IMG/VR virus record: IMGVR_UViG_3300013004_000031
Span: 62,001-121,814 of that record
DNA from: an uncultured virus (IMG/VR IMGVR_UViG_3300013004_000031)
Lineage: Duplodnaviria > Heunggongvirae > Uroviricota > Caudoviricetes
Reading direction: 5' to 3' (one strand)
Length of the DNA stretch: 59,814 nucleotides
Numbering within the stretch: position 1 is the stretch's first letter; every line of letters starts with the position of its first letter. This document shows, in pieces, positions 29,753 through 50,492 of the stretch. The position numbers were made by a program, and so were the translations under genes. The notes beneath the pieces were generated by a model that was not told the origin of the DNA, did no database searches, and saw only the letters and a list, made by a program, of their open reading frames with translations.

Positions 29753-31276
29753 TTAATTCAATGAATGAAAATATGTAACCCATTCATTGAATTGGTTCCC
29801 CTTCAAAATACCGGAAGCAATTGTTTTCATTTCCTCTTCATTCGGTTCCCTACCAGCATTCAATTCTTCTAGAACATATTCTTGCAAGGCTGCTGTGATA
29901 TCCTTGAATTTGGATTTATCCTTGACAAGAATTGGAAACCATTGCATTAATTTATCACCACTGAAATATTGTTTCAGAAGTTTTCTGGTGTCATCTTCCG
30001 ATCCTCCAATGTTGGAAACCTTCTCTTCCGCCCTTTTGATCTTCTCCCAAAATTCCTGTTTATTGAAAAGACCAGAACCACGGGATGCTTCATCACAGTA
30101 ACCAACTGCTTTGATGGTTTCCCATGATGGATTCTGAATCAGCTTGGTGAGAGTCTTGATATTCAATTTATCTAAATTGTGAACAAGCATATGTTTATCA
30201 ACTGCTGCCAATATGTTCTTTTTATCTTGGGGGGATAATTCCGCAAAACGCAATCTTTTGAAAATTTCCTCAACAATGGGAACTCCCGCCGATTCGTGTC
30301 CATGATAATTACTGAAACCATTATCTTTCTTTCCTCTGGTAGTGGCTTTCCCGAAGTCATGGAAGAGAACTGCCAGATTGATCACAGGGTCTTTGTATGG
30401 TGATGCCTTTAGACATTCATAGATGTGTCCCAGAACTTGGGAATCCCCTTCGGGGTGGTGTTGTGGGTCGTGATCATATCCTTCCATCGTGGTAAATTCG
30501 GGAAGGATATCATGGAGGATTTTGGTGTCCTGTAATTTCTTTAGGAAATTCGCAAGCGTTTGTCCCGTTTTGGCGGATTTGAAAAATTCCTTGGAAATGC
30601 TTTCTTGGGAAATTGCCTTGGGGTCTTGGAGGAGATGCTTCAATTCAATTGCGGCAGCTTTGGTATTATCCTCAATTTCAAAATCCATCTTGGCGGCAAA
30701 ACGAAAGACACGGAGGATTCTCGTAGCGTCTTCCAGAAATCTTTGTTTTGCGTCTCCCACGGCACGGACGATCTTGTTCTTCAAATCTTCCAGACCACCT
30801 TGGTAATCCACGATCTTACCCTCTTCATCCAACCCGAAAGAATTGATTGTTAAATCTCGCCGCTCCGTATCCTTTTCAAATGAATCTGTTTCTGTTGATA
30901 TGTTGGATTGTCTTCCAATATCGCCGGAGTCGGTTCTGAATTTTGCCAGATCATAAACATAACCTTTCCAGAGAATGGCATACACGGGTTGGGAATCGTT
31001 CTTGGAAATATTTCTCAATTCAAAATGTTTTTCCAATTCTTCCACGGGAATATTGGTAGCCAAATCCACATCATCAATTGCGTTACCCATGAGTAGATCA
31101 CGGGGAACTCCCCCAACGATATAGATTTCTCCTTGTAATTTTGCCTTGATATTCTTCATCAAATCCAAAGCAACTTGGAGTTCTTCCGATTCTTTGACAG
31201 CGGTATTCCACTTCTCATCAAAATCCTCCACGTATTCACGCATGAGTCGGTGATATAATTTATGAAATCTTTCCAT
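29753..31276 (-). CDS. cca: tRNA nucleotidyltransferase (CCA-adding enzyme) with HD domain
   Basis: VGGVPRD, DVDLAT, RRDLTIN, EDATRILR, HHPEG, LFHDFGK. Confidence 0.9.
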   Translation of the reverse strand: MERFHKLYHRLMREYVEDFDEKWNTAVKESEELQVALDLMKNIKAKLQGEIYIVGGVPRDLLMGNAIDDVDLATNIPVEELEKHFELRNISKNDSQPVYAILWKGYVYDLAKFRTDSGDIGRQSNISTETDSFEKDTERRDLTINSFGLDEEGKIVDYQGGLEDLKNKIVRAVGDAKQRFLEDATRILRVFRFAAKMDFEIEDNTKAAAIELKHLLQDPKAISQESISKEFFKSAKTGQTLANFLKKLQDTKILHDILPEFTTMEGYDHDPQHHPEGDSQVLGHIYECLKASPYKDPVINLAVLFHDFGKATTRGKKDNGFSNYHGHESAGVPIVEEIFKRLRFAELSPQDKKNILAAVDKHMLVHNLDKLNIKTLTKLIQNPSWETIKAVGYCDEASRGSGLFNKQEFWEKIKRAEEKVSNIGGSEDDTRKLLKQYFSGDKLMQWFPILVKDKSKFKDITAALQEYVLEELNAGREPNEEEMKTIASGILKGNQFNEWVTYFHSLN

Positions 31277-31280
31277 ATTT

Positions 31281-33305
31281 TTATAGATATTTATAATAGA
31301 GTTTATACAATTGTGGATAATTGTATTTTTTGGATAAATCTTCAAATTCTTCAGGGTTGGTTGCTACGGTTTTCAACATGTGTAAGGCATACAATCTAAA
31401 AGCATTTATAATGTGGGGATACATATCATCAACAAATTGAACGAATTGATAATTTTTATTATCCATTTTGGGAAAGAGCATTTTGAGATTTGTGAATTCC
31501 AAATCCCCATAATTGAAATGTGTATTACCCGACAACATATAATCAACCCCATCCAGAGGATTGGAATACGACTCGAAAAATTTGTCAAATTGTAACTGCG
31601 CCGGATCATTATCCAACTTCGGTTTGAAATTTTCCATAGCCAGTTTTGTTATGATGTTTTCCAACACTCCTTTTGATTGACCATGTTTACTATCCATAAC
31701 ACCCTGAAGAGCATGGCGGAAATCCTCAAGAATAATAAGTCTGCTTGGAAATCTTACAGTAAAGGATTTCCTGACATCGTTGCCTGAAATTGTCAGGGTG
31801 TCGAACGGTTCTTCTTCCATTTCAATATAATCTTCAATCATGGAGAAATTGCTATCTCCGCTTGCAGCGGTTTTTATAAACCCACCATCAATAAGCACTG
31901 TATAAAGCTCATCCTCATCATCCAACATATCCTCAATCTTATCGTCAAAATTCTTCATATAGTGACAATATGTATCAAATTTATCGGAATCATTATGATA
32001 TTCCTCTTCTGAAAAGTGGATTTCCAAGCTGGTGTTGGTTAGGATCATTCGATATATGTTGATGTCGGTAGCGTCATATATGTATTGGAACAATTGGGAA
32101 TACTCATAATCATCATCATATTTCCCATCCCTAGCTTTACTCACATCATAATCTTCAGCTTCCAACTCGACATCATCCGGTAAATTGAACTTGGTTAAAT
32201 CGATGGTTGATGTTCCGCTTGCTTGGAAATATACTTCTTCATCGTCCATCAAGTAATAATCAACACTACTATATGTCAACCTGCCGTTATATTCCTCTTT
32301 TATTTCTTCCAGTTCATCTTCCAGACCCAATTGGGAATGTCTGCTTTCCCCCCTTTCATCATCCCGATCATGGTTTATTCGTTTGAAATCGGATGAGTCT
32401 TGGGTGGATTCCTCATCCGTGAAATAATTGGCAACCAGATCAAGGATTTCATCATCATAATAAGTTCCCCCCTTTTTCGTATAGGAATTACCACGGAAAT
32501 CTTCGGGAGTGGTTGTTTGTTTATTTTTCAGATAATTTACCAAGGATTTGTAGAAATTGGGGATTGCGGTATCTCCATATATCTTGGTATCGGGAATGGC
32601 AATCTCATCTCCGTAATCATCCACCAATCGACGAACACGCAAACGGGACATGGGGCGCAATCCATATGCACCGGATATGCCCCTGTCGGAATCAACGAAT
32701 ATTTCCCTCTTCTGAAAGTCCTCTTCCGTAAGCTCATTGAAATCCTCTTCTCGCACCACATAAGCCACAGCACCTCCTGAAATGGCTTCTTGGATGGCAC
32801 ACTGGAAATATCCCCCACCTTGGGAATGACAGGATGATATGTTGCGGTGATCGGACATGCGAACCACATCAATGGGAGCGCGGGAAAGGATGACTATGAA
32901 TTCCGGTTTCTCAAACGCGGATTCCAGATTGTCCTTATACATTGCAAACCAATCCAGATATTTTTTCTTTTTATTCTCCGATACTTTCAGGGCAGCAATG
33001 GCTTTACCAATGTTGATTTTCTGTTCCTTGTGTTCCCCCTGCCCATATTTTGGATCAAGCTTTATTTTTCTGATGACTTCCCCTTTTTTCAAATCCACCT
33101 TGTCAAAATGCTGAATTCTTTTCAGGTCATCCATGATACTCTGAGCCGTGATGTCCGTCCCGATTGGAAATGCCACACGCATTTTGTCTCCAAAAATATG
33201 ATCAAAAGGTAAGACATCCGAATGTTGGTTGAGATAATCCACGACCTTTTGGTTCATCTCTGTGATGAGGACGGATTCGTAGAGTTCTTGGAGTTGGAAA
33301 ATCAT
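31281..33305 (-). CDS. Large acidic hypothetical late protein
   Basis: About 674 aa; TAAATA-N5-ATG at 33305. Confidence 0.8.
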   Translation of the reverse strand: MIFQLQELYESVLITEMNQKVVDYLNQHSDVLPFDHIFGDKMRVAFPIGTDITAQSIMDDLKRIQHFDKVDLKKGEVIRKIKLDPKYGQGEHKEQKINIGKAIAALKVSENKKKKYLDWFAMYKDNLESAFEKPEFIVILSRAPIDVVRMSDHRNISSCHSQGGGYFQCAIQEAISGGAVAYVVREEDFNELTEEDFQKREIFVDSDRGISGAYGLRPMSRLRVRRLVDDYGDEIAIPDTKIYGDTAIPNFYKSLVNYLKNKQTTTPEDFRGNSYTKKGGTYYDDEILDLVANYFTDEESTQDSSDFKRINHDRDDERGESRHSQLGLEDELEEIKEEYNGRLTYSSVDYYLMDDEEVYFQASGTSTIDLTKFNLPDDVELEAEDYDVSKARDGKYDDDYEYSQLFQYIYDATDINIYRMILTNTSLEIHFSEEEYHNDSDKFDTYCHYMKNFDDKIEDMLDDEDELYTVLIDGGFIKTAASGDSNFSMIEDYIEMEEEPFDTLTISGNDVRKSFTVRFPSRLIILEDFRHALQGVMDSKHGQSKGVLENIITKLAMENFKPKLDNDPAQLQFDKFFESYSNPLDGVDYMLSGNTHFNYGDLEFTNLKMLFPKMDNKNYQFVQFVDDMYPHIINAFRLYALHMLKTVATNPEEFEDLSKKYNYPQLYKLYYKYL

Positions 33306-33333
33306 GTTATTATTTAAGGGATAATGTGGAAAA

Positions 33334-33414
33334 TGGTAGATGCTGAGGGAATCGAACCCAATCTCTGAGAGGATCAAAACCTCTAGTGCTAAAAAACCGT
33401 TACACTACGCATCA
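33334..33414 (-). tRNA. tRNA-Gln(UUG), atypical
   Basis: AGAGG-TT TTG AT-CCTCT anticodon arm, GTTCGA, CCA end; imperfect acceptor and T stems. Confidence 0.75.
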
Positions 33415-33424
33415 ATTATAAAAA

Positions 33425-33522
33425 TGGTCTAGGTGACAGGATTCGAACCTGCGAGAGACAGACACTTACTGCCCCCAAGTAGTTCCAAGCTACCCCGATT
33501 ACCAAGCTATCGCAACACCTAG
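33425..33522 (-). tRNA. tRNA-Pro(UGG) with long variable arm
   Basis: CTAGGTG/CACCTAG-A-CCA; GGTAG-CT TGG AA-CTACT; 98 nt. Confidence 0.8.
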
Positions 33523-33525
33523 ATA

Positions 33526-33612
33526 TGGTGTGTCACATAGGATTCGAACCTACTCAGCCCAAAGGCAAATGATTTACAGTCATTCTCAACTCTCCAACTT
33601 TGACGGTGACAC
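33526..33612 (-). tRNA. tRNA-Tyr(GUA)
   Basis: GTGTCAC/GTGACAC-A-CCA; AATGA-CT GTA AA-TCATT. Confidence 0.9.
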
Positions 33613-33625
33613 ATATTAAAAAAAG

Positions 33626-33698
33626 AGCCGTAGGAGGAATTCGAATCCCCGACCACCGAATTACAAATTCGACGCTCTACCAACTGAGCTACTACGGC
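33626..33698 (-). tRNA. tRNA-Thr(UGU)
   Basis: GCCGTAG/CTACGGC; TCGAA-TT TGT AA-TTCGG; CCA not encoded. Confidence 0.9.
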
Positions 33699-33703
33699 AT
33701 TGA

Positions 33704-33775
33704 CACTTCTGAGGGGAATCGAACCCCTATTTGGTGGATGAAAACCACCCGTCCTAACCATTAGACGACAGAAGC
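33704..33775 (-). tRNA. tRNA-Glu(UUC)
   Basis: GGTGG-TT TTC AT-CCACC; GTTCGA; CCA not encoded. Confidence 0.9.
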
Positions 33776-33780
33776 AAAAT

Positions 33781-33890
33781 TGGCTCGCTTATTTGTTGAC
33801 GGAGGCATTAGTCTTTCGACAGCGAACGATGATCACTATTACGATCCTCTCCGAAGCAGTTTTTTGATTTGGGGACATACTCAGCCCAAG
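33781..33890 (-). ncRNA. Candidate structured small RNA ending in CCA inside the tRNA operon
   Basis: About 110-nt non-cloverleaf insert with GTC-GAAA-GAC and GATCG..TGATC hairpins and a 3' GCCA; 5' end uncertain. Confidence 0.4.
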
Positions 33891-33901
33891 ATTTTATAAA
33901 A

Positions 33902-33976
33902 TGGCTCTCAGGGTAGGATTCGAACCTACAACCTAGAAATTAACAGTTTCCCGCTCTACCATTGAGCTACCTGAGA
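33902..33976 (-). tRNA. tRNA-Asn(GUU)
   Basis: TCTCAGG/CCTGAGA-G-CCA; CT GTT AA loop. Confidence 0.95.
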
Positions 33977-33978
33977 TT

Positions 33979-34055
33979 TGGTGAGAGTCGCGGGATTTGA
34001 ACCCACAAGACCACGGATTAAAAGTCCGTTGCTTTACCAAATAAGCTTCACTCTC
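33979..34055 (-). tRNA. tRNA-Lys(UUU)
   Basis: ACGGA-CT TTT AA-TCCGT; GTTCAA; CCA end. Confidence 0.9.
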
Positions 34056-34141
34056 ATAATATTAAAAACATTCAGTGTGCTTGTTTCATCACAATCTCCC
34101 TTTCGGACTTTAATGTGTTCGGCCACATAACCCCTAGATAA

Positions 34142-34172
34142 CAAAAAACCCCATCTTGTTAAGGATGGGGTG
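34142..34172 (-). terminator. Attenuator terminator upstream of the tRNA operon
   Basis: ACCCCATC-loop-GATGGGGT followed by TTTTTG. Confidence 0.85.
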
Positions 34173-34199
34173 AAAACGAAACAGGATATTACCATATAA

Positions 34200-34262
34200 T
34201 CATTTGCACCGCCACCCAGATGGTGTCGGTTTCTCCTGATTATAATTTTGGTTGTTGCTCAT
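34200..34262 (-). CDS. Leader peptide MSNNQNYNQEKPTPSGWRCK of a putative tRNA-operon attenuator
   Basis: 21-codon ORF ending about 28 nt before a terminator; its 3' end is complementary to the terminator 5' arm. Confidence 0.75.
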   Translation of the reverse strand: MSNNQNYNQEKPTPSGWRCK

Positions 34263-34307
34263 GTCGTTATTCTTATTTAGCAGATGCGTTTAGATTTTCA
34301 AGTTCTT

Positions 34308-34505
34308 TTATAATAAAATTTCATTCATTTGATCAATTATCTCATTAATATTGATTGGAGATGCGTTTGTTTTATAGAATTGTGCTGCTGGTGAATACCA
34401 ATTAACCCAATGGGTAATATTCTCAATAGATACACCATTCAAATATTTGGAGTAAATGAGTAAATCAATATCAGCAAAATCCATCTCTTTTAATTCTTTG
34501 TCCAT
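34308..34505 (-). CDS. Hypothetical protein
   Basis: ATG immediately after the upstream stop. Confidence 0.6.
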   Translation of the reverse strand: MDKELKEMDFADIDLLIYSKYLNGVSIENITHWVNWYSPAAQFYKTNASPININEIIDQMNEILL

Positions 34506-36333: not shown

Positions 36334-36410
36334 TGGAGCGACATGAGGGACTTGCACCCCCCAACCTGATGTTTGGAAAACACCCGCTCTACTAATTGAG
36401 CTAATGTCGC
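36334..36410 (-). tRNA. tRNA-Gly(UCC), atypical D/T loops
   Basis: GCGACAT/ATGTCGC-T-CCA; TT TCC AA; T-loop GTGCAAG. Confidence 0.85.
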
Positions 36411-36411
36411 G

Positions 36412-36499
36412 TTGCGGGAGTGGAATTTGAATCCACAACAGGACTTTAACCTTTCTCTTGGTTATGAGCCAAGGATTTTACCAATTAAACTACCCCGCG
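36412..36499 (-). tRNA. tRNA-Met(CAU), initiator-like, long variable arm
   Basis: CGCGGGG acceptor with C1:A72 mismatch; CTTGG-CT CAT AA-CCAAG. Confidence 0.8.
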
Positions 36500-45249: not shown

Positions 45250-45324
45250 TGGTGGAGCGTGTAGGAATCGAACCTACATTGGAGGTGTAGAAAACCTCAG
45301 TCCTATCCGTTGAACGAACGCTCC
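45250..45324 (-). tRNA. tRNA-Arg(UCU)
   Basis: GGAGCGT/ACGCTCC-A-CCA; GAGGT-TT TCT AC-ACCTC. Confidence 0.9.
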
Positions 45325-45347
45325 GATTTTGTGTTAGTTTTTAAGAG

Positions 45348-45423
45348 TGGTGCGCCCGAATGGATTTGAACCATTGACCCGCCGATTATGAGTCGGATGC
45401 TCTAACCACTGAGCTACAAGCGC
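45348..45423 (-). tRNA. tRNA-CAU, probably Ile2 (lysidine type)
   Basis: TAGCTCAGTGGTTAGAGCA..CGACTCATAATCG pattern of bacterial Ile2; CCA end. Confidence 0.8.
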
Positions 45424-45451
45424 ATTTTGTTCCACGTGGAACATTGAAAGG

Positions 45452-45534
45452 TGCTTCGGAAGGGACTTGAACCCTTACGCCATTACTGGCAACGGATTTT
45501 AAGTCCGTAGTGTCTGCCATTCCACCACCAAAGC
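45452..45534 (-). tRNA. tRNA-Leu(UAA)
   Basis: ACGGA-CT TAA AA-TCCGT, long variable arm, GTTCAAG; incomplete CCA. Confidence 0.9.
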
Positions 45535-50414: not shown

Positions 50415-50492
50415 TGGTAGTCCGGGCGGGTGTCGATCCCGCAACCTCTCACTTATAAGGCAAGCGCTCTCACCGCTTTGAGCTACCGGACA
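50415..50492 (-). tRNA. tRNA-Ile(UAU)
   Basis: CTTGC-CT TAT AA-GTGAG; T-loop GATCGAC; CCA end. Confidence 0.8.

Follow-up and report, generated by a model that had tools for sequence, protein, structure and literature searches.

The stretch of DNA analysed here, hereafter the window, is 59,814 nucleotides (nt) long and is part of a 121.8-kb contig of 39% G+C (IMG/VR record IMGVR_UViG_3300013004_000031) that, judged by its genes, belongs to an uncultured T4-like phage. Its minus strand carries a cluster of transfer RNA (tRNA) genes for Lys, Asn, Glu, Thr, Tyr, Pro and, in divergent form, Gln. Ahead of the cluster lies a compact module made up of a promoter-like site, a leader open reading frame (ORF) of 20 codons and an intrinsic terminator, with a spacer between the terminator and the first tRNA (Table 1). 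This module is the subject of the present report, and we propose that it is probably a ribosome-mediated, or leader-peptide, transcription attenuator of the phage tRNA operon.

A preliminary description, made from the letters alone, had placed a leader ORF of 20 residues at 34262-34200 and an intrinsic terminator at 34172-34142, followed by seven tRNAs. The ORF is there, from ATG to TGA, and a terminator scan recovered the hairpin at 34171-34143, at most 1 nt from where it had been put. The tRNA count stands in part: ARAGORN calls six of the seven (Lys, Asn, Glu, Thr, Tyr and Pro), while the Gln gene is weak, divergent and below the Rfam threshold. Because relatives hold a clear tRNA-Gln(ttg) at the homologous position, we regard the copy in the window as a divergent Gln tRNA of uncertain function.

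The most conspicuous property of the leader is its codon content. Every codon from 3 to 14 stands for Asn, Gln, Tyr, Glu, Lys, Pro or Thr, exactly as had been claimed, and each of them, Gln included, is readable by one of the seven anticodons with standard wobble. The residue set is not a post-hoc choice, because it was fixed beforehand by the tRNA cluster. These seven residues make up 38% of the residues in the contig's 125 long ORFs, and a run of at least 12 of them occurs in none of the 28,699 sliding frames of 19 residues drawn from those ORFs. Among 926 ATG-initiated ORFs of 15-40 codons the leader alone reaches a run of 12, the runner-up having 8. Six-frame translation of the whole contig yields two runs of at least 12, the leader and a poly-Thr tract, which makes the leader the sole run of mixed residues.

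Relatives of the module were found through the 674-residue protein encoded next to the cluster, which gave eight loci (three at 100% identity, two at 77% and three at 63%), and further through DNA patterns built on the promoter-like boxes, on the two types of spacer, and on segment 2 of the leader RNA together with the terminator. In its final form the last of these patterns left codons 1-14 free; a scan of metagenomes with it returned 44 stretches, six with the module (L065, L068, L070, L075, L097 and L100) and 38 unrelated, and a scan of viral contigs returned 15, two of them unrelated coding sequence (L048 and L055). The module is thereby present in the window, in 14 IMG/VR contigs and in 6 metagenome records, at least one of which equals an IMG/VR contig in length and may duplicate it. 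It occurs as 11 distinct sequences of 157-161 nt that encode eight peptides: MSNNQNYNQEKPTPSGWRCK in variant A (the window), MSNNQNYNQEKPTPSGWRRE in B and I, MSNDQNYNQEKPTPYGWRRE in C, MSNNQYNNQEKPTPYRWGRE in F, MKYEQYNQEKAATPNRWRRE in D, MKYEQYNQNKPATPNGWRRE in E, MKYQQYNQNKPATPIGWRRG in G and MKYEQQYNQNKSTAPIRWRRE in H.

Conservation of the ORF, on which the preliminary description had made its proposal depend, extends to all 11 variants, as does conservation of the promoter-like boxes, the ATG, the frame, a length of 20-21 codons, the TGA and the terminator. The sole change of length, to 21 codons in H, is an insertion of a whole codon. Leaders differ from one another by synonymous exchanges (CAG/CAA, AAA/AAG, CCG/CCA, AAC/AAT and GAA/GAG), and substitutions that change the peptide mostly remain within the set (E to N, E to Q, P to A, and S, Y, N or I at codon 15). 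The first tRNA begins 77-93 nt past the T-run at every locus, and it is always the same tRNA cluster that follows. What lies upstream varies, from a protein gene in the window to tRNA-Met and tRNA-Gly, 12-14 nt or about 300 nt away, in MK-type loci. Since the upstream neighbour differs between loci, it is with the following cluster that the module travels.

The RNA of the module can form two competing helices, and both are conserved, as counted on alignment A2 of the 11 variants. The terminator hairpin, at -13.3 kcal/mol in the window, has 8 pairs, and 100% of their cells are paired across the variants, with one compensatory change from C-G to U-A in three sequences. The antiterminator, formed by segments 2 and 3, has 14 aligned pairs; of its 149 cells 96.6% are paired, a share that falls to 48-63% if the partner strand is slid by 1-3 columns. 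Three of its pairs have changed on both sides, and it has only a 1-nt bulge. Alignment column 55 is common to the two helices, and a C-to-U change there leaves both paired, as G.U in one and as U-A in the other. In every variant segment 2 closes at its 3' end with the TGA. The architecture drawn in the preliminary description, namely an ORF of this length whose stop falls in segment 2, a terminator and a competing antiterminator, is therefore kept in 11 of 11, and its 2:3 pairing of about 16 base pairs was reproduced as 6+4+6 pairs with a ribosome at codon 10. Its 1:2 hairpin exists as well but is weaker than had been implied, with an A.G mismatch in all 11 variants, 79.5% of cells paired and one compensatory change, in H.

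The folding of these sequences depends on where a ribosome is placed. The leader RNA of the window folds better than 200 of 200 shuffled versions (z = -3.53). When the footprint of a ribosome is imposed at codon 10 in ViennaRNA and the RNA ends before segment 4, 6-9 of the 8-10 nt of the terminator's 5' arm are hidden in all 11 variants, and the two states are close in energy, the antiterminator state minus the terminator state coming to -2.5 to +3.6 kcal/mol. A ribosome at the stop codon leaves the terminator state ahead by 10.8-16 kcal/mol in every variant, and without a ribosome that state is again ahead in all 11, by 6.8-16 kcal/mol. Minimum-energy folds of the full-length RNA were computed for four variants, and in A the terminator is lost with the ribosome at codons 1-11. 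Rfam has no family for the leader or the spacers and gives just sub-threshold matches on the terminator hairpin.

Table 1. Positions, in window coordinates, of the module, the tRNA genes that follow it and examples of promoter-like motifs
Feature	Position	Strand	Basis or remark
Promoter-like site, CTTGAAAA-N12-TGCTAAATA (TTGAAA, 16-nt spacer, TG-extended TAAATA)	34274..34302	-	Conserved boxes
Leader ORF, 20 codons + TGA, peptide MSNNQNYNQEKPTPSGWRCK	34262 (ATG) to 34200	-	ORF list, translation
TATAAT hexamer, Tyr-Asn codons 7-8	34239..34244	-	Invariant, 11/11 variants
Segment 1, CCGACACC, codons 12-14	34222..34229	-	Pairs with GGTGGCGG
Segment 2, GGGTGGCGGTGCAAATGA, codons 16-20 + stop	34200..34217	-	Antiterminator 5' strand
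Segment 3, TCGTTTTCACCCCATCC	34163..34179	-	Antiterminator 3' strand; overlaps terminator 5' arm
Intrinsic terminator, 8-bp stem ACCCCATC/GATGGGGT, 8-nt loop, T-run	34143..34171	-	Terminator scan
Spacer from terminator to first tRNA (type X)	34056..34142	-	Strongly conserved in L015 and L018 although their leaders differ
tRNA-Lys (ttt)	33979..34055	-	ARAGORN and Rfam
tRNA-Asn (gtt)	33902..33976	-	ARAGORN and Rfam
tRNA-Glu (ttc)	33702..33776	-	ARAGORN and Rfam
tRNA-Thr (tgt)	33625..33698	-	ARAGORN and Rfam
tRNA-Tyr (gta), long variable arm	33526..33612	-	ARAGORN only; no Rfam tRNA match
tRNA-Pro (tgg), 98 nt, atypical	33425..33522	-	ARAGORN; Rfam weak tRNA-Sec match only, 26.1 bits
Divergent tRNA-Gln-like gene, anticodon loop TTG	33337..33414	-	Rfam tRNA 28.3 bits against gathering score 29; not called by ARAGORN
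Late-type motif, example	33306-33320	-	Upstream of 674-residue ORF
Early-type motif, examples	45803-45780, 50736-50713	-	

If the leader reads out the tRNAs encoded behind it, its codons should follow the cluster from one relative to the next, and the preliminary description had suggested looking for this co-variation. We compared codons 2 to n-5 of each leader with the locus's own cluster as called by ARAGORN, leaving out the last five codons because they form segment 2; Gln(ttg), found by Rfam, was added to the clusters of L004 and L005, and an odd Asn(gtt)-like gene was read into that of L018. Matches to the locus's own cluster number 12 of 14 codons in A, I and B and likewise in C, 13 of 14 in F, and 14 of 14 in E and in G, with 15 of 15 in H. 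Among loci with the D leader they are 14 of 14 in L007, 12 of 14 in L006, L008 and L020, and 11 of 14 in L097. The background for comparison is the 38% share of the seven-residue set in long ORFs.

Three residues follow the clusters, with exceptions. Ala codons occur in D, E, G and H. Ten loci with these leaders have enough downstream sequence, and 8 of them carry tRNA-Ala(tgc); in the other two, L006 and L008, it is absent and an ORF with an HNH_3 domain stands in its place. The five MS-type loci, with four peptide variants, have neither Ala codons nor tRNA-Ala. The Ile codon ATT is confined to G and H, the only variants whose clusters have tRNA-Ile(gat), and the Ser codon TCA to H, which alone among the leaders is followed by a cluster with tRNA-Ser(tga) as a separate gene beside tRNA-Thr. 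At the position of tRNA-Thr(tgt), ARAGORN reads the Ser anticodon tga in L097 (3380-3454) and L070, which may be an anticodon switch; there the D leader is unchanged and keeps its ACA Thr codon. The order of Ala and Thr is reversed between G ("A T") and H ("T A"), which suggests that composition matters more than peptide sequence. These three co-variations are suggestive of a link between leader codons and tRNA content, not proof of one.

The way in which genes start in this phage bears on the reading of the leader. The major capsid protein is of the T4 type, with 32-34% identity to gp23 of T4-type cyanophages (cyanomyoviruses), and other genes of the contig are for a portal protein, a helicase, a ribonucleotide reductase and a tRNA nucleotidyltransferase. 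Contigs of relatives are up to 177-207 kb long. A DNA search for cultured relatives among 50,697 phage records gave only tRNA-sized matches (134 records matched, none covering at least 80% of the query), and tblastn of the 674-residue neighbour protein against the same records gave no match. A Shine-Dalgarno sequence precedes just 8 of 87 long ORFs. Across the whole contig there are 46 copies of an early-type motif, TAAAAACTAG-N2-TAnnAT, nearly all on the minus strand in a region dense with small ORFs, and the ATG lies 6 nt past the hexamer at 22 sites and 9 nt past it at 15. This motif is probably the phage's early promoter class and would yield leaderless messenger RNAs (mRNAs). A late-type motif, [C/T/A]TAAATA, which we take to resemble T4-type late promoters, has the ATG 5 nt downstream in 30 of the 60 cases with an ATG within 15 nt, a spacing that implies transcripts beginning at the start codon. 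Since Shine-Dalgarno sequences are few and ATGs follow closely on promoter-like motifs, this phage seems as a rule to make mRNAs with little or no leader.

The start of the leader fits this pattern. All 11 variants retain both boxes of its promoter-like site, separated by 12 nt of variable sequence, which gives the consensus CTTGAAAA-N12-TG(C/G)TAA(A/G)TA, and in the window the site is unique at 0 mismatches. The TAAATA box also resembles the late-type motif. The ATG lies 10-11 nt past this -10-like box and has no Shine-Dalgarno sequence, as is usual for this phage, so that by comparison with the other genes its placement is not out of place. From the conserved boxes we infer that the leader ORF lies within the transcript.

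Every sequence-level feature of leader-peptide attenuators that we tested for is present at this locus, barring a convincing 1:2 hairpin: a short ORF, cognate codons, an intrinsic terminator ahead of the tRNAs, an antiterminator that excludes it, and a stop codon whose ribosome would cover segment 2. The elements themselves, their conservation, the covariation of their base pairs, and the match and co-variation of leader codons with tRNAs are observations. We therefore hypothesize, with a probability of roughly 0.65, that the module is a ribosome-mediated transcription attenuator that ties expression of the phage tRNA operon to the speed at which the cognate codons are decoded.

Hypothetically, RNA polymerase would start a few nt upstream of the ATG, at the TTGAAA / TG-TAAATA site, and a ribosome would load on the nearly leaderless RNA and begin to decode codons that need the tRNAs encoded downstream. 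A ribosome that reaches the TGA quickly would cover segment 2, leaving segments 3 and 4 to form the terminator, and transcription would stop ahead of tRNA-Lys. When a charged tRNA is scarce, the ribosome would instead linger at codons 8-13 (Asn Gln Glu Lys Pro Thr), where it covers segment 1 and leaves segment 2 free; segment 2 would then pair with segment 3, the 5' arm of the terminator would be sequestered, and the polymerase would read on into the tRNA genes. The outcome would be a negative feedback from decoding speed to tRNA supply. What we infer in this scheme is where transcription starts, that the leader is translated, that translation and transcription are coupled, and that the switch responds to shortage.

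Several observations weigh against a ribosome-mediated attenuator. A search of sequencing runs listed no RNA run that contains the stretch; each of its 7 entries matched a fraction of only 0.06-0.07 of the sampled words. Codons outside the set are present, namely AGC for Ser in all MS-type leaders, TCT for Ser in A, I and B, and GAC for Asp in C. The leader samples neither tRNA-Cys nor tRNA-Val in H, nor tRNA-Glu in G, and the D leader is unchanged despite the loss of tRNA-Ala (L006 and L008) or of tRNA-Tyr (L020, L068, L097 and L075). The co-variation comes down to some three evolutionary events, in related sequences that form a small tree. The 1:2 helix, weak as described above, is broken in F, and in variant I (L100) a B-type segment 2 combined with an A-type segment 3 puts a C.A mismatch into the antiterminator. 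In full-length equilibrium folds the terminator is kept at every ribosome position in D and F, and H loses it only with the ribosome at codons 11-12. In these variants the switch would therefore have to rest on the order of folding during transcription. At about 4-6 nt, the presumed 5' untranslated region exceeds that of most genes in this phage. Finally, the invariant TATAAT within the ORF could be an internal promoter, and the spacer, being strongly conserved yet by prediction unstructured, could hold an unrecognised promoter.

The likeliest alternative is that the module is an independent small gene that has its own promoter, ends at a plain terminator and yields a short RNA or a peptide of 20 residues. 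Expression of the tRNAs would then depend on leaky read-through or on a promoter in the spacer that escaped recognition, and the codon match would reflect A-rich composition and common descent. A promoter, about 120 nt and a strong terminator are indeed the usual layout of a small-RNA gene, and the constancy of the D leader where the cluster has lost tRNAs would be expected. The spacer, too, is conserved as a signal at the level of DNA would be: it comes in two unrelated, well-conserved types, X (the window, L015 and L018) and Y (the others, for example L004:2648-2724 and L006:1826-1904), which are mosaic relative to leader type and are predicted to be unstructured (z = 0 to +1; z = +0.2 for type X of the window). 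Transcription of the tRNAs mainly from a promoter between 34141 and 34056 was among the events that the preliminary description had named as fatal to its proposal, yet a sigma-70 scan of that interval on the minus strand found no sigma-70-like site. A profile built from the 46 early-type motifs likewise found no early-class promoter between leader and tRNAs, with best scores of -8.6 in the window and at most +1.0 in relatives, real sites scoring at least 5.5. Moreover, a small gene accounts neither for the compensatory changes that have preserved an antiterminator overlapping the terminator, nor for the lack of a comparable run in the other A-rich stretches of the contig, nor for the fact that residues added to the leader (Ala, Ile and the Ser of TCA) match tRNAs that appear in the cluster. 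We consider this explanation unlikely.

Slightly less likely still is a terminator/antiterminator switch that is driven not by a translating ribosome but by a protein of phage or host, by a small ligand or by a directly bound tRNA, in a transcript that starts at the internal TATAAT and leaves the ORF untranslated. Conservation of both alternative helices would be equally expected of such a switch, and the TATAAT is invariant in 11 of 11 variants while other Tyr and Asn codons vary. In the window a sigma-70 promoter scan pairs it, inside the leader ORF, with a -35-like hexamer, ACGACA, at 17 nt. By our reading of the sequences this partner is not kept in relatives, however: matches number 4 of 6 in A and D, 3 of 6 in F and 1 of 6 in H. 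The TATAAT hexamer may be an internal promoter, a sigma-dependent pause site, or just codons. A start at this point would also leave unexplained the upstream TTGAAA / TG-TAAATA boxes, the maintenance of ATG and frame, and the match between codons and tRNAs, and Rfam, with its T-box model, finds nothing in the leader at E <=5. A chance ORF ahead of an ordinary terminator that ends the upstream transcription unit is already disfavoured and very improbable, for although an open frame of 20 codons is nothing unusual at 39% G+C and the stretch is partly open in further frames, the contig has no second codon run like it, the base pairs covary, and the module with its promoter-like boxes is conserved across different upstream contexts.

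If the module is a ribosome-mediated attenuator, one may ask what shortage it would answer. Wobble-modified Lys, Glu, Gln, Asn and Tyr tRNAs are classic targets of anticodon nucleases, and to link host nucleases of this kind to the module is speculation. We tentatively propose, as a combined scenario that we think rather doubtful as a whole, that the leader is a roll-call of the operon's tRNAs which evolves as tRNAs are gained and lost, that replacement tRNAs are switched on specifically in response to cleavage of the host's own Lys, Glu, Gln, Asn or Tyr tRNAs by its defence nucleases, and that the TATAAT, at about +20, is a sigma-dependent pause that holds the polymerase until a ribosome loads.

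The closest known systems are the multivalent attenuators of enterobacteria, such as the thr leader (Thr and Ile) and the ilv leaders (Ile, Leu and Val). They share with the phage module a short ORF with codons for several amino acids, a stop in segment 2, competing antiterminator and terminator hairpins and a U-run, and in both read-through is expected upon ribosome stalling. Here, in contrast, tRNAs rather than biosynthetic enzymes would be regulated; the signal would thus be the supply, or charging, of tRNA itself, a product that feeds straight back on decoding. The phage leaders also sample 7-10 amino acids, mostly once or twice each and not in long runs, and they lie on a phage genome, without a Shine-Dalgarno sequence and behind a very short 5' untranslated region. 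The pheST attenuator of E. coli, with its pheM leader peptide, responds to the level of charged tRNA and likewise puts a gene of the translation apparatus under leader-peptide control, but it is cellular, controls a tRNA synthetase and senses a single amino acid.

T-box riboswitches (RF00230) are terminator/antiterminator switches that report tRNA status ahead of translation-related genes, as the phage module would. They recognise uncharged tRNA by direct contact, with a specifier loop and a bulged T-box motif, and work without an ORF, whereas the phage module has an ORF, its antiterminator carries a 1-nt bulge only, and Rfam finds no T-box in 33250-34350 at E <=5, nor in six related loci at E <=0.05. 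By these features the module is not a T-box. Phage T4 offers a comparison of another kind, being a T4-type phage with a compact cluster of eight tRNAs and two small stable RNAs that are transcribed as precursors; to our knowledge no leader ORF or attenuator has been described for it. Why and when phages express tRNA genes is a long-standing question; the leading proposals are that these genes compensate for codon usage or help the phage to evade defences that cleave tRNAs.

With respect to the nearly leaderless transcript, mycobacteria provide a parallel: leaderless polycysteine short ORFs are reported to act there as cysteine-responsive attenuators (bioRxiv 10.1101/834739). They too would consist of a short ORF on a leaderless or nearly leaderless transcript that senses particular codons and controls downstream genes, but they sense one amino acid and are followed by protein genes. 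The preliminary description knew of no multi-tRNA attenuator that controls a phage tRNA operon, and in the material returned by our full-text literature searches there was neither a published account of one nor a paper on leader-peptide attenuation of tRNA genes. Should our hypothesis be true, the phage measures tRNA supply and adjusts it by feedback, and leader-peptide attenuation is extended from genes of amino-acid synthesis to genes of tRNAs. The module is short and self-contained and is therefore directly testable in reporter constructs; if confirmed, it may serve as a natural sensor for the availability of specific tRNAs.

Within the window the module is specific to one tRNA cluster, since no leader or terminator precedes the Leu-Met-Arg group (45250-45534) or the Ile tRNA (50415-50492), both of which directly follow protein genes. 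A Met-Gly tRNA pair (36334-36499) begins 14 nt past an ORF. On the opposite strand from the leader, an ORF at 34220-34348 (plus) was considered and rejected, as its ATG is present only in MS-type variants.

The surroundings of the cluster look tRNA-related as well. Directly downstream, at 29753-33305 on the minus strand, are the genes for the conserved 674-residue protein, which matches no family, and for a tRNA nucleotidyltransferase (CCA-adding enzyme). Searches of PHROGs and Pfam gave nothing for three neighbouring proteins, P0001-P0003. Insertions of 620-1250 nt lie within the tRNA clusters of relatives at the sites of missing tRNA-Ala or tRNA-Tyr, including the gaps in L020, L068, L075 and L097. 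One carries an ORF with an HNH_3 endonuclease domain (L006:2376-2963, minus strand; 24.9 bits against a cutoff of 24.8), and the ORF of another (L007:979-1650, plus strand) has no significant family.

The cluster itself holds further irregularities. A 125-nt stretch between tRNA-Asn and tRNA-Glu (33777-33901, minus strand) has no Rfam match and is missing in L004 and L005, where the gap is 10 nt. The Asn-like gene of L018 (3341-3418) has an aberrant D arm and was overlooked by both ARAGORN and Rfam. Several tRNAs are of unusual length, among them the tRNA-Pro of the window and, in L004, a tRNA-Lys of 87 nt (2725-2811) and a tRNA-Asn of 93 nt (2814-2906).

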